DNA of 64,000 bases, from positions 716,311 to 780,310 of the forward strand of contig NZ_JAPNJW010000001.1 of assembly GCF_026626745.1 (NCBI RefSeq), in the 5' to 3' direction. Of this stretch, positions 1-60,375 are shown one piece after another. How positions within the stretch are numbered: position 1 is the first letter of the stretch; the number at the start of each line of letters is the position of its first letter. The stretch comes from Nannocystis sp. RBIL2 (GTDB taxonomy: Bacteria; Myxococcota_A; Polyangia; Nannocystales; Nannocystaceae). Below the pieces are notes generated by a model. It was not told where the DNA came from. It was given only the letters and a program-made list of their open reading frames with translations, and searched no databases. Position numbers and translations under genes: made by a program.

Positions 1-173
1 TCAGTCGCAGGTACATACAAACACGTTACATCGCGCGCGCGTCGGCGCGCCGGCCAGGATCGCTCGCGCGGGTGCGCCCGATTGCGACGATGTAAGGAGC
101 CCCATCGGACATGTCCGAATGAACATGTCCGAACAGTCTTCTCACCCGAAGACCCGGCCGCGGCGGCGCCGCT

Positions 174-4643: not shown

Positions 4644-5825
4644 ATGCAGCCGTACCCCATCACTGCCATGGCCCTGTGCAACGGCATGGGCGACAGCACC
4701 GCCGCCGTGCTCGCCGCCTTGCGTGCCGGTCGCTCCGGCCTCGGCCCGTGCCCCGCCGAGTTCGAGCTCGACGCGGTCGTCGGCGCCATCCCGACCCCGC
4801 TGCCGTCGCTGCCCGGCTTCCTCGGCCCGGTCCGCGACACCCGGCAGGCGCGGATCGCCGCGGTCGCCCTGGCCGAGCTGCAGGCCCCGCTGGACCGCGC
4901 GCGCGCCCGCTGGGGTTCGGACCGCGTCGCCATCGTCCTCGGCACCAGCACCGGCGGCATCGAGGCCAGCGAGACCGCCTACGCCCACGCGCAGGCCCAC
5001 GGCGGCGCCCTCCCGGCCGCCTACGACGTCGAGACCTCGCACGCCCTCGACGCCGTCCTGCACGTCGCCCGCGTCCTCGGCGGCGGCCTCGGCGGCCCGG
5101 CCTACGTCGTCTCGACCGCCTGCTCCTCTTCCGCCAAGGTGTTCGCCTCGGCCCAGCGGCTGCTCGCCGCCGGCCTGTGCGACGCGGTCCTGGTCGGCGG
5201 CGTCGACAGCCTGTGCCGCCTCACCGTGCGCGGCTTCGCCGGCCTCGAGGTCCTGTCCTCGCGGCCATGTCGTCCGTTCTCGCGCGAGCGGGCCGGCATC
5301 AACATCGGCGAGGGCGCCGCGCTGCTCCTGGTCGAACGGACAGGTGACGGCCCGGCCCGCCTGCTCGGCGTCGGCGAGAGCTCCGACGCCTACCACATGA
5401 CGAGCCCGCACCCCGAGGGCCTCGGCGCGCGCATGGCGATGGAGCGCGCGCTCCAGCACGCCGGCCTTTCCGCCGCCGACGTCGACCACGTCAACGCCCA
5501 CGGCACCGGCACCAAGCAGAACGACAGCATGGAGAGCGCGGCGATCCGGGCGGTGTTCGCCGGGGCCCCTGCGCCCGCGGTGGTCGCCACCAAGGGCTAC
5601 ACCGGGCACATGCTCGGGGCCGCGGGCGCCACCGAGGTCGCCTTCGTCATCGACGCCATCGCCGGCGGCTACCTGCCCGCCAGCGTCGGCGCCGACCCGC
5701 TCGACGACACCCTCGCGGTCGACGTGGTCACCGCCCGCCGCGACGTCCCCACCCGCGCCGCGCTGAGCAACTCGTTCGCCTTCGGCGGCAGCAACTGCAG
5801 CGTCCTCGTCGGAGGCCCGGCATGA
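4644..5825 (+). CDS. beta-ketoacyl-ACP synthase (KAS I/II-like; ApeO-like ketosynthase)
   Basis: 393 aa with active-site Cys in STACSSS, two His motifs (HMTSP, NAHGTGT) and C-terminal NSFAFGGSN. Its stop originally overlapped the next gene start. Confidence 0.85.
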   Translation: MQPYPITAMALCNGMGDSTAAVLAALRAGRSGLGPCPAEFELDAVVGAIPTPLPSLPGFLGPVRDTRQARIAAVALAELQAPLDRARARWGSDRVAIVLGTSTGGIEASETAYAHAQAHGGALPAAYDVETSHALDAVLHVARVLGGGLGGPAYVVSTACSSSAKVFASAQRLLAAGLCDAVLVGGVDSLCRLTVRGFAGLEVLSSRPCRPFSRERAGINIGEGAALLLVERTGDGPARLLGVGESSDAYHMTSPHPEGLGARMAMERALQHAGLSAADVDHVNAHGTGTKQNDSMESAAIRAVFAGAPAPAVVATKGYTGHMLGAAGATEVAFVIDAIAGGYLPASVGADPLDDTLAVDVVTARRDVPTRAALSNSFAFGGSNCSVLVGGPA

Positions 5826-5832
5826 GCGCCTG

Positions 5833-5896
5833 CGCTTCCAGACATGTTCATCGGGACATGTCCCGATGTTCATCCTGCCCGCTGCCCGCGGCCCGC
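5833..5896. mobile_element. about 64-bp CATG-palindrome element inserted at the KS/CLF gene junction, flanked by 23-bp direct repeats (CGTCGGAGGCCCGGCATGAGCGC)
   Basis: Direct repeat copies lie at about 5810-5832 and 5896-5918. Each copy contains the ATGA stop/start overlap; the insert carries GACATGTTCATCGGGACATGTCCCGATGTTCATC. Confidence 0.6.
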
Positions 5897-5910
5897 GTCG
5901 GAGGCCCGGC

Positions 5911-6714
5911 ATGAGCGCGCTCGCCTTCGCCGTCCGCGGCCTCGGGTTCTGGACCCCCGGCTACCCCGACCTCGCCGCCTGGCGGGCCCGGCCCGACACC
6001 TGGCCCGAAGGACAGGCGCCTCCGACCGAGCCGGCCGCCCCGAAGGCCGAGCTGCTGCCACCGATGATGCGGCGGCGCACCAGCCTGCTCACCCGCATGG
6101 CCGCCGAGGTGGCCGCCCAGGCGCTGCAGGACGGCGGCGTCGACCGGGCCGCGGCCACCCTCGTGTACGGCTCCGTCTACGGCGAGATCCGCACCACCCT
6201 CGACCTCCTCGCCGCCCTGCTCGTCCCCGGCGAGCCGCTGTCGCCGACCAAGTTCCACAACAGCGTCCACAACACGGCGGCCGGCTACGTCTCGATCGCC
6301 ACCGGCAACCGGGCCGGCAACGCCGCCCTGTCAGCCGGCCTCTCGACCCTCGCCATGGGCCTCGTCGAGTGCGCCGCCCTCGTGGCCGCCGGCGAGGGCG
6401 ACGTGGTGCTCGTGCTCGCCGAGGAGCCGCTGCCCGAGCCGCTGGCCGCCGGCCGCCGCTGGGACCCGTTCGCCGCCGCCTTCGCCCTTTCGGCGCCTGT
6501 CCCCGGCGACATGCCCATGAGGACATGTCGCCTCGAACATGGCGCGAATGACATGCTCCCCGCGCCACGTCCGGTCCCGGCCGCCCTGGCCGCCAACCCG
6601 TGCGCCGCCGCGCTCGCGCTGGTCGAGGCGCTGGCCGCCGGCGCCCCGGCGCGGATCGCCCTCGAGCCGCACCTCGCGGTCGGCTGGCAGTGCGCGCTCG
6701 GAGCCGGGGCATGA
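5911..6714 (+). CDS. KS-like chain-length-factor-type protein (Ketoacyl-synt_2 family, lacks active-site Cys)
   Basis: About 267 aa starting MSALAFAVRGLGFWTP; carries a KS N-terminal-domain-like signature (FHNSVHNTAAGYVSIATG). Its TGA overlaps the next ATG. It contains an in-frame CATG-repeat insertion at about 6507-6561. Confidence 0.7.
   Translation: MSALAFAVRGLGFWTPGYPDLAAWRARPDTWPEGQAPPTEPAAPKAELLPPMMRRRTSLLTRMAAEVAAQALQDGGVDRAAATLVYGSVYGEIRTTLDLLAALLVPGEPLSPTKFHNSVHNTAAGYVSIATGNRAGNAALSAGLSTLAMGLVECAALVAAGEGDVVLVLAEEPLPEPLAAGRRWDPFAAAFALSAPVPGDMPMRTCRLEHGANDMLPAPRPVPAALAANPCAAALALVEALAAGAPARIALEPHLAVGWQCALGAGA
6507..6561 (+). repeat. 4 tandem 14-bp CATG-core units (CGACATGCCCATGAG / GACATGTCGCCTCG / AACATGGCGCGAAT / GACATGCTCC) lying in frame inside the CLF-like CDS
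   Basis: Read directly from the sequence; they encode DMPMRTCRLEHGANDMLP within the protein. Confidence 0.8.
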
Positions 6715-12366: not shown

Positions 12367-12418
12367 CCACCCCGTCGACGCCGACTCTGCCTGTCTCTTC
12401 GCGCAGGCCCTTCAAGAC

Positions 12419-13150
12419 ATGTCCTTGACGCCAGACGACATCGCCGCCAACCTCGCCGCCGTCCGCGCCCGGATCGCCGCCGCCGTCGCCCGACGCGGCC
12501 CCGGTCCCGTGCCCACCCTCATCGGCGTCAGCAAGAAGCAGCCCGCCGAGGCCGTGATCACCGCCTGTCGGGCCGGCCTCGGCGACCTCGGCGAGAACTA
12601 CGCCCAGGAGCTGGTCGCCAAGGCCGAGCTCGTCGCCGCGGCCGTCACCCCGCCGCGCTGGCACTTCATCGGCCCGCTGCAGACCAACAAGGTGCGCAAG
12701 GTCGTCGCCGTCGGCGCCCTCGTCCACACCGTCGATCGCCCGGGGCTCGTCGACGAGCTCGCCCGCGAGGTCGAGCGCCTGCGCGCGGGCCGAGGCGCCA
12801 CCACCCCGCTCGAGCTGCTCGTCGAGGTCAACGTCGGCGACGAGGCGCAGAAGGCTGGCGTCTCCCCGACGGACCTGCCGGCGCTGCTCGACCAGATCGC
12901 CGCCCGTCCCCAGCTGCGCTGCGTCGGCCTCATGGCGATCCCCCCCGAGGGCGAGCCGGAGCAGACTCGCCCGTACTTCGCCCGCCTGCGCGAGCTGCTG
13001 CGCCGTGAAGCCGCGATCGCGCGCCCCGGCGTCGACCTGGTCCACCTCTCCATGGGCATGAGCGCCGACTTCGAGGTCGCGATCGAAGAGGGCGCGACCA
13101 TGGTCCGCGTCGGCACCGCCATCTTCGGCGCCCGTCCGCCGCGCGCCTGA
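12419..13150 (+). CDS. yggS: YggS-family pyridoxal-phosphate-binding protein (PLP homeostasis)
   Basis: 243 aa with the alanine-racemase N-terminal fold signature (LIGVSKKQP...GHLQTNKVR...). Confidence 0.85.
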   Translation: MSLTPDDIAANLAAVRARIAAAVARRGPGPVPTLIGVSKKQPAEAVITACRAGLGDLGENYAQELVAKAELVAAAVTPPRWHFIGPLQTNKVRKVVAVGALVHTVDRPGLVDELAREVERLRAGRGATTPLELLVEVNVGDEAQKAGVSPTDLPALLDQIAARPQLRCVGLMAIPPEGEPEQTRPYFARLRELLRREAAIARPGVDLVHLSMGMSADFEVAIEEGATMVRVGTAIFGARPPRA

Positions 13151-17628: not shown

Positions 17629-17695
17629 GCCGACTGGCCGCCAGGACATGTCCTCGCGGCCAGCTCGGCGGTGCCGTCCGTCCGGCTGAGCTCGC

Positions 17696-18470: not shown

Positions 18471-19778
18471 TCACGCGACCAGTCGACCGACCGCGAGCGG
18501 CCCGTCGGCGTTCTCGACCTCGATTTGCGTCGCCCGGCCGAGCAGCGCGTCGTCTCCGGCCGCCAGCACCGTCAAGCCGTTGCCGGCCCGACCGACCAGC
18601 AGCCCCGTCCGCCGGTGTCGCGTCCGGTGCACGACCACCGGCAGGGTGCGCCCGACCTGCGCCGCCGCGAACGCCCGCTGCTTCGCCGCCGACAGCGCCC
18701 GCAACGCCGCCCCGCGCTGCTGCTTGACCGCCGCATCGACCTGTCCCGAGAGACAGGCAGCATCGGTGCCCGCGCGCGGTGAGTAGGCGAACACGTGCAG
18801 GTACGCCAGCGGCAGCGCGGCCAGCAGCGCGTGCGTGGCCGCGAACGCCTCGTCCGACTCCCCGGGGAAGCCGACGATCACGTCGGTGCCGACGCCGATC
18901 CCCGGCACCGCCCCGGCCAGGCGAGGCACCAGCGCCTGCAGGTCGGCGGCGGTGTGCGCCCGACGCATGCGCCGCAGCGTGTCGTCGTCGCCGCTCTGCA
19001 CCGGCAAGTGGAGGTACGGACACAGCCGCGGATCCGTCGCCAGCAGCGTCACCAGGTGATCGTCGACTTCGTGCGGATCGACCGAGCCGAGGCGCAGCCG
19101 CGCCGGCCCGAGCTGCGGCAGCAGCTCCGCGACCAGCGACGACAACGTGCTGCGCGGCCGCAGGTCGCGGCCATAGATCCCGAGGTGGACCCCGGTGAGC
19201 ACCACCTCCGGCACCCCCGCCGCGACCAGCTCGTCCAGCTGCGCCCGCACCTCCGCCGGCGGCACGCTCACGCTGCGCCCGCGCACCTGCGGCACGATGC
19301 AGAAGCTGCAGCGGTAGTCGCAGCCGTCCTGGATCTTCAGGTACGCCCGGCTGCGCCGCGGGTCGGCGGCCGGGCGCAACCGGGCCGCGCGGACGCGCCG
19401 CAGCAGGTCGACCGGGGCCACGTGGATCTCCGGGACATGTTCCTCCGAACATGTCTCTCCGAGCACCTCGAACAGCCGCTCCTTCTCGCGGTTGCCGACC
19501 ACCAGCGTCACCCCGGGCAGCGCGGCCGCCTCCGCGGGGGCGGCCGTCGCCCAGCAGCCGGTGACGACCACCTTCGCCCCGGCGCGCGCGGCCCGGCGCA
19601 CGTGCTGGCGCGCGTCGGCGTCGGCCTCGTGGGTGATCGTGCAGGTGTTGACGATCACGACCTCGGGCGCGGCCTCGGCGTCGACCACGGTGTGGCCGGC
19701 CGCGCGGGCCATCTGCTCGAGGGCGTCGGACTCGAACTGGTTGAGGCGACAGCCGAGCGTGCTGAACGCGACGCGCAT
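18471..19778 (-). CDS. mtaB: radical SAM methylthiotransferase, MtaB (YqeV)-like
   Basis: N-terminal MTTase domain (MRVAFSTLGCRLNQFESD), CxxxCxxC radical SAM motif (DGCDYRCSFCIVP) and a C-terminal TRAM-like region. Its ATG overlaps the kinase stop (ATGA). Confidence 0.85.
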   Translation of the reverse strand: MRVAFSTLGCRLNQFESDALEQMARAAGHTVVDAEAAPEVVIVNTCTITHEADADARQHVRRAARAGAKVVVTGCWATAAPAEAAALPGVTLVVGNREKERLFEVLGETCSEEHVPEIHVAPVDLLRRVRAARLRPAADPRRSRAYLKIQDGCDYRCSFCIVPQVRGRSVSVPPAEVRAQLDELVAAGVPEVVLTGVHLGIYGRDLRPRSTLSSLVAELLPQLGPARLRLGSVDPHEVDDHLVTLLATDPRLCPYLHLPVQSGDDDTLRRMRRAHTAADLQALVPRLAGAVPGIGVGTDVIVGFPGESDEAFAATHALLAALPLAYLHVFAYSPRAGTDAACLSGQVDAAVKQQRGAALRALSAAKQRAFAAAQVGRTLPVVVHRTRHRRTGLLVGRAGNGLTVLAAGDDALLGRATQIEVENADGPLAVGRLVA

Positions 19779-24470: not shown

Positions 24471-24477
24471 ACTTTAC

Positions 24478-24564
24478 GGCATGTCCGTGTGGACATGCCC
24501 TTTCATGCAGGGCCGTTCGGACATGTCCGAACGGCCCTGTCGCTTGCTCCGTCGACAAGCGACA
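24478..24564. terminator. cluster of three GC-rich palindromes (22, 32 and 25 nt) downstream of the acyl-CoA dehydrogenase
   Basis: GGCATGTCC-GTGT-GGACATGCC; a perfect 32-nt palindrome CAGGGCCGTTCGGACATGTCCGAACGGCCCTG; and GTCGCTTG-N9-CAAGCGAC. Confidence 0.6.
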
Positions 24565-24649
24565 CGAGCAGCCTGACGACCGCAATTCTCGAGCGCTCAT
24601 GGGCTCCCCACGCTGGGTCGCCTGCGCCAGGTCGGGCCCGAAAGCAGCA

Positions 24650-24677
24650 TGACCGCCAGGACATGTCCTGGCGGTCA
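24650..24677. terminator. perfect 28-nt palindrome TGACCGCCAGGACATGTCCTGGCGGTCA next to the convergent binding-protein gene end
   Basis: Read directly from the sequence; a candidate bidirectional terminator hairpin with a CATG core. Confidence 0.6.
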
Positions 24678-39296: not shown

Positions 39297-39378
39297 TTTC
39301 AGAGCATGTCTCGAAGCACATGCCCCATCGAACATGCCCTGAAAGACATGCCCCATCGGGCATGCCCGTGAGCGCCGC
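39297..39378. repeat. 5 tandem 13-16-bp CATG-core units (AGAGCATGTCTCGA / AGCACATGCCCCATCG / AACATGCCCTGAA / AGACATGCCCCATCG / GGCATGCCCGTGAG) filling a convergent intergenic region
   Basis: Read directly from the sequence; the array occupies the entire space between two convergent stop codons. Confidence 0.85.
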
Positions 39379-45449: not shown

Positions 45450-45524
45450 TGTCTTCACGGACAGGCGCTCGAGAGCATGTTCTCACGGACATGTCTGGAC
45501 GATCATGTCCCCGCGGACATGTCC
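45450..45524. repeat. TGTC-N6-GACA element plus 4 tandem CATG-core units (GAGAGCATGTTCTCACG / GACATGTCTGGAC / GATCATGTCCCCGCG / GACATGTCCTCAG) in a convergent intergenic region
   Basis: Read directly from the sequence between the ABC ATPase stop and the mqnD stop. Confidence 0.85.
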
Positions 45525-46343
45525 TCAGCGCGGCAACAGCCCCGCCGCCTGCCCGCGCGCGCGCAGCTCGGCCAGCGCCGCCGCCCCTTCGGCTCCCATG
45601 TCGCGCGAGAACTCGTTGACGTACAGCGCGATGTGCTGCCGGCAAACCTCGTCGCTCAGCTCCTGCGAGTGCGCCTTCACGAACGGCCACGCCGCGGCCG
45701 GGTCGGCCTCCGCCGCCGCGATCGACCGGGCGATCCCCTCCTCCACCGCCCGCACCTGCCCGGCGGGCAGCGAGCGGTGGGCCGCGATCACCCCGAGCGG
45801 CAGCGGCAGCCCCGTCGCCGCCTCCCACACCTCGCCGAGGTCCGCCACCTGCTGCAGCCCGTGATCGCGGAACACGAACCGCGCCTCGTGGATCACCAGC
45901 CCCGCGTCGACCTCCCCCGCGGCCACCGCCGGCATGATGCGATCGAAGCGCATCGGCACCACGGTCACCGACGCCGGCGCGAAGCAGCGCAGCAGCAGGT
46001 GCGCCGTCGTGTACGCGCCCGGGATGGCGATCTTCCGCCCCGCCAGCGCCACCAGCTCCGTCGCCTCGCGCGCGACCACCAGCGGCCCGCAGCCGCGGCC
46101 CAGCGCCGCGCCTGTCCGCAAGACCAGGTAATCGCGCTCGACCCAGAACAGCCCGTGCGCGCTCAGCTTCGTTACCGGCAGCGGCGCCTCGCCGGCCAGC
46201 GCGCGCTCGTTGAGCGCCTCGATGTCGGCCAGCCACGGCAGCGGCCGCAGCCCCGGCACGAACTCCGGCACGCGCACCAGCGCGTCGAACATCCACGTGT
46301 CGTTCGGACACGGCGAGAACCCGAGAGGCAGCGGCTCGCTCAT
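45525..46343 (-). CDS. mqnD: 1,4-dihydroxy-6-naphthoate synthase (futalosine pathway)
   Basis: 272 aa with N-terminal LGFSPCPNDTWMFDAL, characteristic of the MqnA/MqnD fold. Its ATG overlaps the upstream gene stop. Confidence 0.7.
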   Translation of the reverse strand: MSEPLPLGFSPCPNDTWMFDALVRVPEFVPGLRPLPWLADIEALNERALAGEAPLPVTKLSAHGLFWVERDYLVLRTGAALGRGCGPLVVAREATELVALAGRKIAIPGAYTTAHLLLRCFAPASVTVVPMRFDRIMPAVAAGEVDAGLVIHEARFVFRDHGLQQVADLGEVWEAATGLPLPLGVIAAHRSLPAGQVRAVEEGIARSIAAAEADPAAAWPFVKAHSQELSDEVCRQHIALYVNEFSRDMGAEGAAALAELRARGQAAGLLPR

Positions 46344-50826: not shown

Positions 50827-50836
50827 CCCTTCGAAC

Positions 50837-52318
50837 ATGTCCAAGAGCGCACCCGTCAAGAAGACCACCAGCAAGATCTGGGACAAGGTCAAGGACGTCG
50901 TCGACCCCGACCGCGCCCTCCAGGCCACCGTCGCCGCCGCCATCGAGGGCGTCGCCGTCCGCAACGTCCTCGGCATGGCGCCCGAGACGTGGAAGCCGGG
51001 CAAGCCGCTCAAGCTGCTGCTGGCCGGCTACGTCGGCACGCGCAACACCGGCGCCGACGTCCGCGTCGAGGAGATGATCCGCCAGCTGCGCCACGTCGTC
51101 GGCGACGACCAGCTCGAGCTGACGATCATGACCGTCGATCCCAAGTTGACGCGCGGCTACTTCCGCGCCGTCCACCAGATCGAGCTGCCGGCGGTGTTCC
51201 CCAAGTTCATCGCCACCGAGTGCCCGAAGCACCACGGCGTCATCGCTTGCGAGGGCTCGATGTTCAAGTCGAAGTTCTCGAGCGCGCTGACCTGCTTCAT
51301 GGCCGGCGCCCTCGGGCTCGCCAACGCCGAGAACAAGGTCAGCGTCGGCTACGGCGCCGAGGCCGGCAACATGACCCCGGCGCTCCGCGACTTCGTGCGC
51401 GACGCCTGCAAGAAGTCGCTCGTCATCTGCCGCAACGAGCCCTCGCGCAAGGTCCTCGGCGAGCTCGGCATCCGCACCACCTCTGGGGCCGACACCGCCT
51501 GGACCTTCGACCCCGCTCCGCTGTCCAGGGGCGCCCAGCTGCTGCGCGACGCCGGCTGGGACGGCCGCCAGAAGGTCCTCGTCGTCTGCCCGATCAACCC
51601 GTTCTGGTGGCCGGTCAAGCCCGACCTGCTCAAGTACGCCGCCTACAAGCTCGGCGGGCAGTACAAGCACGAGCACTACAGCGCCTTCTACTTCCACCAC
51701 CACAGCGAAGCGTCCGACAAGAAGTACAACGCGTACATCCAGGCCCTGGCCGACGGTGTCAACGCGTTCGCCGCGGAGCGCGAGTTCTTCACCATCCTCG
51801 TCGGCATGGAGCAGCTCGACCGCCACGCCTGCGAGGACCTGCAGCCGCGCCTCGATCGCGGCGGCGCGCTGTTCGTCAGCGACGAGCACGACATGTACGA
51901 CCTCGTCAGCGTGCTGCGTAACTGCAGCATGATGATTAGTTCGCGCTTCCACGCGATCGTCACCTCGATGCCCGGCCTCGTGCCCTCCGCCGGCGTCACC
52001 ATGGACGAGCGGATCCGCAACCTCATGAACGATCGCGGCCACCCGGACATGTTCTTCGAGGTCGACGAGGAGGGCCTCGGCGACAAGCTGCTGCACACCC
52101 TGCGCCGCCTGTGGCGCGACGCCGAGGGCATCAGCGCCGACATCGCCCGCGCCGTCCCGGCCCAGCTGAAGCTCATGGGTCAGATGGGCATCGACTTCAT
52201 GGACGAGGTCGTCCGCGTCTACCCCGAGTTCCCGCGCCGCGACCTCCCGCGCACCTGGGAAGCCCACCTGCCGCCGCTGCCCGCCAACGTGCAGCGCCTG
52301 CTGGAGCGCCACGCATGA
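50837..52318 (+). CDS. polysaccharide pyruvyl transferase family protein
   Basis: 493 aa with PS_pyruv_trans-type motifs (GYVGTRNTGAD ... ISSRFHAIV). Confidence 0.7.
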   Translation: MSKSAPVKKTTSKIWDKVKDVVDPDRALQATVAAAIEGVAVRNVLGMAPETWKPGKPLKLLLAGYVGTRNTGADVRVEEMIRQLRHVVGDDQLELTIMTVDPKLTRGYFRAVHQIELPAVFPKFIATECPKHHGVIACEGSMFKSKFSSALTCFMAGALGLANAENKVSVGYGAEAGNMTPALRDFVRDACKKSLVICRNEPSRKVLGELGIRTTSGADTAWTFDPAPLSRGAQLLRDAGWDGRQKVLVVCPINPFWWPVKPDLLKYAAYKLGGQYKHEHYSAFYFHHHSEASDKKYNAYIQALADGVNAFAAEREFFTILVGMEQLDRHACEDLQPRLDRGGALFVSDEHDMYDLVSVLRNCSMMISSRFHAIVTSMPGLVPSAGVTMDERIRNLMNDRGHPDMFFEVDEEGLGDKLLHTLRRLWRDAEGISADIARAVPAQLKLMGQMGIDFMDEVVRVYPEFPRRDLPRTWEAHLPPLPANVQRLLERHA

Positions 52319-59871: not shown

Positions 59872-60312
59872 ATGAGCTGGATCCGGATCGGTGACACCAC
59901 CTGGACCTTTCGCAACGCCTCGCTCGAGCTCTACCATTGCGAGGGCCCCGAGGCCGACTGGAACCTCGCGCTGGACCACGCCGGCGCGACGCTGTGGCTG
60001 GCCGGCACCGTCGTCCCCGGGCCGCGCTCGCCCGAGGCGCTGATCGGCGCCGAGGTCTCGGTCGACCTGCGCTCGCTCGACGAGGTCGCCGGCGCCCTGC
60101 TCGGCCGCGCCGTCACCCTCTTCCCGCACGGCCAGGACGTGAATGCGCTCGGCTTTCGCCTGGCCGCCTCGCCCGGCGGAGTGCGCCTGGCCGCCTCTGC
60201 CCGCTGCGACTGGGACCGCTACCTCGGCACCTTCGACCACGGCCAGCCGGTCGACCTCGAGCTCGACATCGACGCCGCCGTCGTCGCGCTGCACCCCGGA
60301 AACATGCCCTGA
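59872..60312 (+). CDS. hypothetical protein
   Basis: 146-aa ORF with good third-position GC; no recognisable domain. Confidence 0.3.
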   Translation: MSWIRIGDTTWTFRNASLELYHCEGPEADWNLALDHAGATLWLAGTVVPGPRSPEALIGAEVSVDLRSLDEVAGALLGRAVTLFPHGQDVNALGFRLAASPGGVRLAASARCDWDRYLGTFDHGQPVDLELDIDAAVVALHPGNMP

Positions 60313-60375
60313 GGGGCATGCTCGATCGCGCAGGTCTTGTTCGACATGTCCTCTCGGACATGTGCTTTGCGACAG
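60301..60375. repeat. CATG-core units and palindromes (CATGCCC-TGAG-GGGCATG; TTCGACATGTCCTCTCGGACATGTGC)
   Basis: Read directly from the sequence. Confidence 0.8.

Follow-up and report, generated by a model that had tools for sequence, protein, structure and literature searches.

Insertion and junction duplication between the ketosynthase and chain-length-factor genes of Nannocystis, with a putative relay reading frame

Introduction

The junction between a ketosynthase (KS) gene and a chain-length-factor-like (CLF) gene was analysed in Nannocystis sp. RBIL2, a myxobacterium of 71% G+C. The DNA considered is a stretch of 64,000 nucleotides (nt) of contig NZ_JAPNJW010000001.1 (positions 716,311 to 780,310 of the forward strand), which is called the window below and in which all coordinates are counted. 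Both genes lie on the plus strand in a small conserved block that comprises SHMT, KS, CLF, an ApeP-like dehydratase, a ketoreductase and an FAD halogenase-like enzyme. The KS gene (4644-5825), taken from the list of open reading frames (ORFs), encodes 393 amino acids, matches Pfam families PF00109 and PF02801 and has orthologues of the same 393-residue length. The CLF gene (5911-6714; 267 amino acids) matches PF13723, and its product is identical to WP_267701908.1 from Nannocystis sp. ILAH1. The KS/CLF pair is of the aryl-polyene type.

Architecture of the KS/CLF junction

A 23-mer, CGTCGGAGGCCCGGCATGAGCGC, occurs exactly twice in the window, at 5807-5829 and at 5896-5918. The two copies lie 89 bp apart from start to start and enclose 66 bp (5830-5895). 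With up to three mismatches allowed, no third match was found in the 64 kb, and 0 were expected from 100 shuffles. If one mismatch is admitted, the repeat grows to 26 nt (5804-5829 and 5893-5918). An earlier reading of this DNA from its letters alone (the original prediction) had recognised the two exact copies, but its distance of 86 bp and its intervening segment of roughly 64 bp are replaced by the values given here.

Copy 1 of the direct repeat (5804-5829, plus strand; CCTCGTCGGAGGCCCGGCATGAGCGC), in which the exact 23-mer begins at 5807, encodes the end of KS (VGGPA) and its stop codon. It carries a GGAGG ribosome-binding site at 5811-5815 and the first ATGA at 5822-5825, within which TGA at 5823-5825 ends the KS gene. 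Copy 2, delimited by the repeat search (5893-5918, plus strand; CCGCGTCGGAGGCCCGGCATGAGCGC), provides CLF with its ribosome-binding site (5900-5904) and its start codon (ATG at 5911), which agrees with the N-termini of 25 homologues. In addition, copy 2 holds a second stop codon, TGA at 5912-5914 within the second ATGA, which closes the short reading frame considered below. In each copy GGAGG stands 6 nt before the ATG. The prediction that the KS end and the CLF start occupy two copies of the same ATGA, and that neither reading frame is broken, was thus confirmed; KS and CLF are both intact.

The 66-bp segment between the copies (5830-5895, plus strand) is absent from six related lineages in the junction alignment. 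Its first part, a core of about 52 nt (5830-5881, plus strand), can be aligned in all occupied alleles, both by direct alignment and with an nhmmer profile, and has the approximate consensus CTGCGCTTYCAGACAKGnnCnnnnGSCATGTCCCGAAGTTCATCCTC. The core contains two 14-nt units, CAGACATGTTCATC and GGGACATGTCCCGA (5839-5866, plus strand), of the kind that forms 14-nt-phased CATG arrays throughout the window; over these units the identity to the array at 107-134 on the minus strand is 25/28. A palindrome search together with a comparison of alleles revealed a perfect 20-nt palindrome, CATCGGGACATGTCCCGATG, at 5849-5868, so that the CATG palindrome noticed originally is present between the copies and is longer than had been thought. 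It is perfect only in the window and in one genome labelled N. pusilla (GCA_049060185, here L095). In N. exedens, in N. punicea and in the alleles L083 and L094, the units hold at most the short version GGGACATGTCCC. Furthermore, the first array unit reads GACAGG, not GACATG, in most occupied alleles.

An origin of the insert by tandem duplication of the adjoining KS 3' or CLF 5' DNA was considered and rejected for the window, where local alignments were no better than those of shuffles (p = 0.26-0.80); in other alleles, matches of the insert to these flanks were marginal and inconsistent. The L083 spacer was likewise tried as a clean 2 x 89 tandem repeat, and this too was rejected: the array cores match and the remainder is unrelated.

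Empty and occupied junctions across the genus

Orthologous loci were obtained through exact-protein look-ups of Nannocystis genomes and contigs. The empty site, in which a single 23-mer is present and KS and CLF overlap by ATGA (once by GTGA), was found in six related lineages, namely N. radixulma, N. pusilla GCA_020073745, N. bainbridge and three lineages from metagenomes, whose CLF identity is 72-78%. The sequence of copy 1 is that of the native, single-copy junction in these genomes. The original prediction had proposed that KS and CLF were once coupled through ATGA and that a segment was inserted with duplication of the junction, and it had named a single 23-mer with the ATGA overlap as the mark of an empty site; both points are borne out by these true empty sites.

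The occupied state is carried by the window strain, N. exedens, N. punicea, two N. pusilla-labelled genomes and three Logan contigs. Six occupied alleles were distinguished by their spacer period: 89 bp in the window strain, 92 bp in L095, 122 bp in N. exedens (identical in the genome and in a Logan assembly), 149 bp in N. pusilla GCA_026626665 (L094), 179 bp in three Logan assemblies and 209 bp in the complete genome of N. punicea. The occupied sites have their repeat boundaries in common, most plainly L083 and L094, in which copy 2 retains its left edge. One core unit is present in the window, L095 and N. exedens, and two are present in N. punicea, L083 and L094. The two core units of N. punicea lie 120 nt apart, and a decayed middle copy of the junction is found there (GGCCGACCGCGAGCGC versus GGCCCGGCATGAGCGC).

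A tree built on 5.3 kb of flanking genes places the carriers in a single clade (85.5% bootstrap), with the empty-site species N. bainbridge as its sister. Because the carriers are monophyletic, the polymorphism of six empty lineages with intact sites and six occupied alleles is explained by one gain. The event must be old, since the flanking coding DNA of the carriers has diverged by up to about 7% and their spacers have diverged so strongly that only the core of about 52 nt remains alignable. A single duplicative insertion has therefore taken place at this junction. Two metagenome scans added no further loci: a 34-nt KS-tail pattern gave 0 matches, and a 19-nt junction pattern gave 120 loci, all unrelated and none similar to KS or CLF.

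Two features of the assemblies bear on the use of these genomes. Compared with the window, L095 has single-base gaps at several places in coding regions, its kinase calls are fragmented, and neither SHMT nor KS is called; in L094 the kinase call is split, SHMT is not called and there is one 2-nt gap. Insertion or deletion errors of assembly are the probable cause, and small length differences there, especially in L095, need care. In addition, the N. pusilla-labelled genomes (L082, L094 and L095) fall into two lineages, in which CLF is 82% versus 96% identical to that of the window and the junction is empty versus occupied. Because two clearly different lineages bear it, the label is unreliable as a guide to relatedness.

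Probable selection on the junction copies and a putative relay reading frame

The two copies have changed unequally among the carriers. Because the KS tail is encoded in it, copy 1 is nearly invariant in all alleles. In copy 2, 4-7 nt at the left side have decayed in N. exedens, N. punicea and L095, and the part GGAGGCCCGGCATGAGCGC, which spans the ribosome-binding site, the spacer, the start and the first codons, shows at most single substitutions across alleles, located in some of them in the ribosome-binding site or the spacer. The identity of 23/23 in the window strain is best read as the outcome of selection on two functional copies and not as a fresh target duplication. Copy 1 would keep the last KS codons and the stop, copy 2 would keep the ribosome-binding site and the start of CLF, and both would be needed; purifying selection, not recency, would thus keep the junction copies alike.

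A mini-ORF of 30 codons (5822-5914, plus strand), with the translation MSACASRHVHRDMSRCSSCPLPAARVGGPA followed by a stop, connects the two copies: it opens with an ATG that overlaps the stop of KS and closes with a TGA that overlaps the start of CLF. Equivalent open frames of 31, 41, 50, 60 and 70 codons are present in the five other occupied alleles. All six spacer periods (6/6) equal 2 modulo 3, and since ATG sits one base before TGA in ATGA, a frame that is opened in the first ATGA closes in the second at such a period. The six lengths require at least five length changes, all of them multiples of 3, for which the chance is about (1/3)^5 = 0.004, a value that rests on the minimum event count among alleles sharing ancestry. 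As a control, two same-strand spacers of the same gene block were measured from gene coordinates. The first has lengths of 24, 11, 35, 24, 27 and 78, the second of 85, 141, 149, 151, 223, 161 and 192, and the two cover all three residue classes modulo 3. Differences between the relay peptides of the alleles are mostly non-synonymous, and it is the frame, as far as the alleles indicate, and not the peptide that is conserved. No relay ORF was evident at the other arrays inspected in the window (60299-60368, 39301-39370 and 24476-24677).

According to two sources, ATGA overlaps couple translation by termination-reinitiation, which needs an overlap or a very short distance, and genes coupled in this manner often encode subunits of heteromeric complexes (PMC6728339; PMC10666635). 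The reading preferred here, to which a probability of roughly 0.6 is given, is that of a single old insertion into the KS/CLF ATGA overlap, with junction copies that selection would have kept and a relay ORF that would preserve coupling. The insertion took place in an ancestor shared by N. exedens, N. punicea, the N. pusilla-labelled carriers and the window strain, once N. bainbridge had split off. With it came about 60-100 bp of non-coding DNA that carried a two-unit CATG array, and a stretch of at least 26 bp at the junction was duplicated. The founding event may have been a template switch during replication or repair, in which the array was copied from elsewhere and synthesis resumed about 26 nt upstream. 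Unequal recombination between the two repeats would then have generated the one- and two-unit alleles and their lengths from 89 to 209 bp. In terms of translation, ribosomes are predicted, on the basis of the length conservation, to finish KS, restart at once, translate the spacer, stop at the CLF start codon and initiate once more. Through this relay the two subunits would retain the termination-reinitiation coupling that they had originally.

Several observations weigh against this reading. Of the two remaining frames, one is likewise free of stops in all alleles, so the openness of the ORF is uninformative; the length argument draws on related alleles, as stated, and its 92-bp member (L095) comes from the assembly with single-base gaps in coding regions. 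Copy 2 has a ribosome-binding site of its own, and CLF could accordingly be translatable independently, without a relay. Conservation is higher in the core of about 52 nt than in the remaining spacer, which hints at a function at the level of sequence (a protein-binding site, for example, or a hairpin) that the relay does not explain. The predicted RNA fold of the region is no more stable than that of shuffles (z = -0.43), and compensatory change in the consensus hairpin affects one base pair only. As for the founding mechanism, which is a matter of pure inference, a template switch is at least as plausible as transposition with a long staggered cut and is considered somewhat the likelier of the two.

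CATG arrays in the window and in the genus

In the window, distances between CATG motifs peak at 14, 28 and 42 nt, with 17, 9 and 11 pairs versus a background of 1-2. In the arrays responsible, a near-palindromic 10-mer, RRRCATGYYY, recurs in 2-5 units with a phase of 14 nt; these arrays are located at 106-133, 5839-5866, 19432-19459, 24476-24503, 24644-24671, 39301-39370, 45472-45527, 60299-60326 and 60341-60368. Most of them stand just after stop codons, and that at 39301-39370 fills a convergent spacer. Arrays were not found in ten Myxococcales loci from outside Nannocystis (L001-L010). A literature search for a Nannocystis repeat family, or for the GACATGTC motif in myxobacteria, found nothing.

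The array between the 3' end of a kinase-TPR gene and the next gene is kept in position across species (window 106-133; L081 4313-4354; L082 4325-4352; L087 124-151). Its GACATG-N8-ACATG pattern is invariant, and the unit number (2-4) and the flanks vary. In relatives, the stop/start overlap of a trpG/trpD-like pair (anthranilate synthase component II and phosphoribosyltransferase, minus strand) lies inside a conserved three-unit array (L081 1049-1090; L082 1037-1078; L090 869-910; L092 798-839; L093 1005-1046; L094 856-897), and arrays therefore recur at translationally coupled junctions. Units also coincide with start codons, as in a YggS-like gene (start 12419; unit 12415-12424, AGACATGTCC) and in the gene at 50837 (unit 50833-50842, GAACATGTCC). 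CCCTTC precedes both of these starts, and several relatives show a weak match to the YggS-like site at the orthologous position.

Within CLF itself, four 14-nt-phased units at 6506-6561 are read in frame and encode DMPMRTCRLEHGANDML. This internal array was found in every Nannocystis CLF examined and adjoins an insertion/deletion hotspot in the protein alignment; it may represent an ancient in-frame array insertion. Furthermore, long palindromes that share a GGACATGTCC apex and have unrelated arms were observed at 24508-24539 (32 nt, perfect), 24650-24677 (28 nt, perfect) and about 17630-17668 (about 38 nt, imperfect), a few tens to about 200 nt 3' of stop codons. They resemble terminators, or hairpins of the repetitive extragenic palindromic (REP) type, with a conserved loop.

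Alternative explanations

The first alternative regards the insert as a non-autonomous mobile element of the CATG-palindrome family, moved by a transposase in trans whose staggered cut would have left a target-site duplication of 23-26 bp. An insert enclosed by direct repeats, with true empty sites in relatives, is classic for transposition, the insert core resembles other arrays of the window (as in the 25/28 match given above), the unit number at the junction varies between one and two, and target duplications as long as 16-28 bp are known in the IS1202 group of insertion sequences (PMC10132070). However, the insert has neither terminal inverted repeats nor TGT...ACA ends, its ends CTGCGC... 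and ...GGCCCG are not inverted repeats of each other, and no defined ends are common to the insert and the other arrays, the similarity being confined to the 14-nt units. Among the 11 arrays of the window, only that at the KS/CLF junction has flanking repeats of note; at the other ten these reach at most 8-11 nt, within the chance distribution, so that the search for further repeat-flanked copies suggested originally gave 0/10 above chance. In about 230 kb of Nannocystis DNA the full 52-nt core matches at the KS/CLF junction only, the other arrays are found at the corresponding orthologous places of eight other genomes, and the tree calls for a single gain. The trans-acting transposase that had been envisaged was likewise looked for, and no transposase, RAYT or integrase was present among the roughly 40 window genes scanned against Pfam. 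The specific route proposed for it, IS200/IS605 TnpA, conflicts with the duplication of 23-26 bp, since IS200/IS605 chemistry leaves no target duplication.

Mobility of the insert is thus an unlikely explanation, and mobility of the CATG-array family is not supported. The original prediction had called the repeat a transposition-like signature and direct evidence that the family is or was mobile. Neither statement is supported, given a single old gain, positionally conserved arrays, a core limited to one junction and the lack of inverted termini, shared ends or recency. Off-target integration by Cas1-Cas2 was also considered and rejected. The length of the duplication taken alone fits a repeat-sized target, but the insert of at least 66 bp exceeds a spacer-sized fragment of about 30-40 bp and is related to a host repeat family, and the window contains no cas genes.

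A second alternative, which appears rather doubtful, holds that the spacer owes its retention mainly to a cis-acting role, as a protein-binding array or an RNA hairpin of the genus-wide 14-nt-phased CATG family that would modulate CLF expression, mRNA stability or termination within the operon, and that the modulo-3 lengths are incidental. It draws on the strong enrichment of the 14-nt spacing, on the 7 occurrences of GGACATGTCC in the window versus 0.08 expected, on the kinase 3' spacer, where the pattern stays invariant in four species with diverged flanks, on the core as the best conserved part of the KS/CLF spacer and on the many arrays directly after stop codons, which recall REP elements. 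The perfect palindrome, however, is not conserved among alleles, and most of them carry GACAGG in the first unit. A scan of the spacer revealed no promoter-like or terminator-like site, an Rfam search of the insert region gave no match, and the fold is not unusually stable. Such a role would also leave the single length class in six alleles unexplained.

The polarity of the event could in principle be reversed, with an ancestral occupied state and empty sites produced by repeated precise deletion between the direct repeats. Recombination between repeats of 23-26 nt would restore a perfect ATGA junction, and the variation in unit number makes clear that the repeats do recombine. This course is nevertheless very improbable: empty sites occur in every examined lineage outside one clade, including the most distant at 72-78% CLF identity, and at least four independent precise losses would be required versus one gain. 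Finally, an assembly artefact in the window genome, which had been named originally as a possible refutation and for which nothing speaks beyond the general risk attached to short tandem structures, can practically be dismissed, for the same architecture recurs with diverged sequence in independent assemblies, namely N. exedens (genome and Logan), three Logan assemblies, the complete N. punicea genome and two N. pusilla-labelled genomes.

Comparison with known systems

The closest parallel is provided by MIRUs (interspersed repetitive units of mycobacteria), which, as PMC12548453 summarises Supply et al. (1997), insert at start codons and hold an internal ORF coupled at -4 nt; the same source states that the -4 nt overlaps leave downstream expression little disturbed. 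As with MIRUs, the Nannocystis insert is a short intercistronic element in an operon and is oriented with the genes, KS and CLF being on the same strand and overlapping in the empty-site genomes. It likewise holds a small internal ORF that overlaps the flanking stop and start, with ATGA at both ends in all six alleles, and strains differ in its number of units (one or two; 89-209 bp). Unlike MIRUs, it belongs to the phylum Myxococcota and has no known sequence relationship to them, and homology to the mycobacterial MIRU consensus is unlikely given phylum and composition. The overlap signals here derive from the 23-26 bp duplication of the host junction and not from the element. Furthermore, MIRUs occupy dozens of loci, whereas one locus is known here, the full element having been found at this junction only in the roughly 230 kb searched.

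REP sequences and bacterial interspersed mosaic elements (BIMEs) share with the arrays the short palindromic units enriched in extragenic DNA, often 3' of stops or between operon genes, and the occurrence of units singly or in small clusters. They differ from the arrays in that CATCGGGACATGTCCCGATG has neither the GTAG nor the CGTC tag given for REPs in PMC3733652, and its palindrome is not conserved in other alleles. The units described here are phased at exactly 14 nt, and arrays also occur inside coding sequence. Unlike in REP/RAYT systems, a duplication of 23-26 bp is present, which the IS200/IS605-type chemistry discussed above would not leave, and no RAYT is found among the window genes.

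This duplication is far longer than usual and is matched only by the IS1202 group, within whose range of 16-28 bp it falls. Members of that group are 1.5 kb long, with terminal inverted repeats of 24-26 bp and a large DDE transposase (PMC10132070), whereas the insert is 66 bp long, lacks inverted ends and has no transposase in its vicinity.

The ancestral KS/CLF junction is a textbook case of ATGA coupling, an overlap between the genes of two presumed subunits of one enzyme, and both new junctions are again ATGA behind a ribosome-binding site. Unlike plain coupling, the occupied junction would proceed in two steps, split by an ORF of 30-70 codons that has no conserved sequence. To our knowledge, a natural relay of this two-step kind has rarely been documented. 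Rickettsia palindromic elements are in-frame insertions in coding genes, and the in-frame 14-nt-phased units inside CLF (6506-6561) are reminiscent of them. No sequence relationship exists, however, and the CLF-internal array is conserved genus-wide and is a candidate insertion only.

Seen together with the wider set of arrays, the locus allows a broader and rather speculative proposal, which on present indications is improbable. The arrays would form a genus-specific class of cis-elements at stops, starts and ATGA junctions and in frame within genes, and the KS/CLF spacer would be a case in which an array seeded a new copy by a duplicative mechanism that rebuilt the overlap on both sides. This would amount to a MIRU-like system in Myxococcota with an uncharacterised mobilising activity and possibly a binding protein.

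Implications

The KS/CLF junction amounts to a natural experiment on the tolerance of an insertion by subunit genes that are tightly coupled, with a duplicated junction and a spacer long held in the one length class that permits a relay. It also provides a caution, in that exact flanking repeats are not proof of recent transposition. What the comparison of genomes would add, as inferred from sequence, is an old and selectively maintained relay architecture resembling that of MIRUs. The 14-nt-phased CATG arrays, which extend across the genus, merit a study of their own. The relay, if true, would be a second and independent case of the MIRU principle, outside mycobacteria, and would offer a design rule for insertions into operons.

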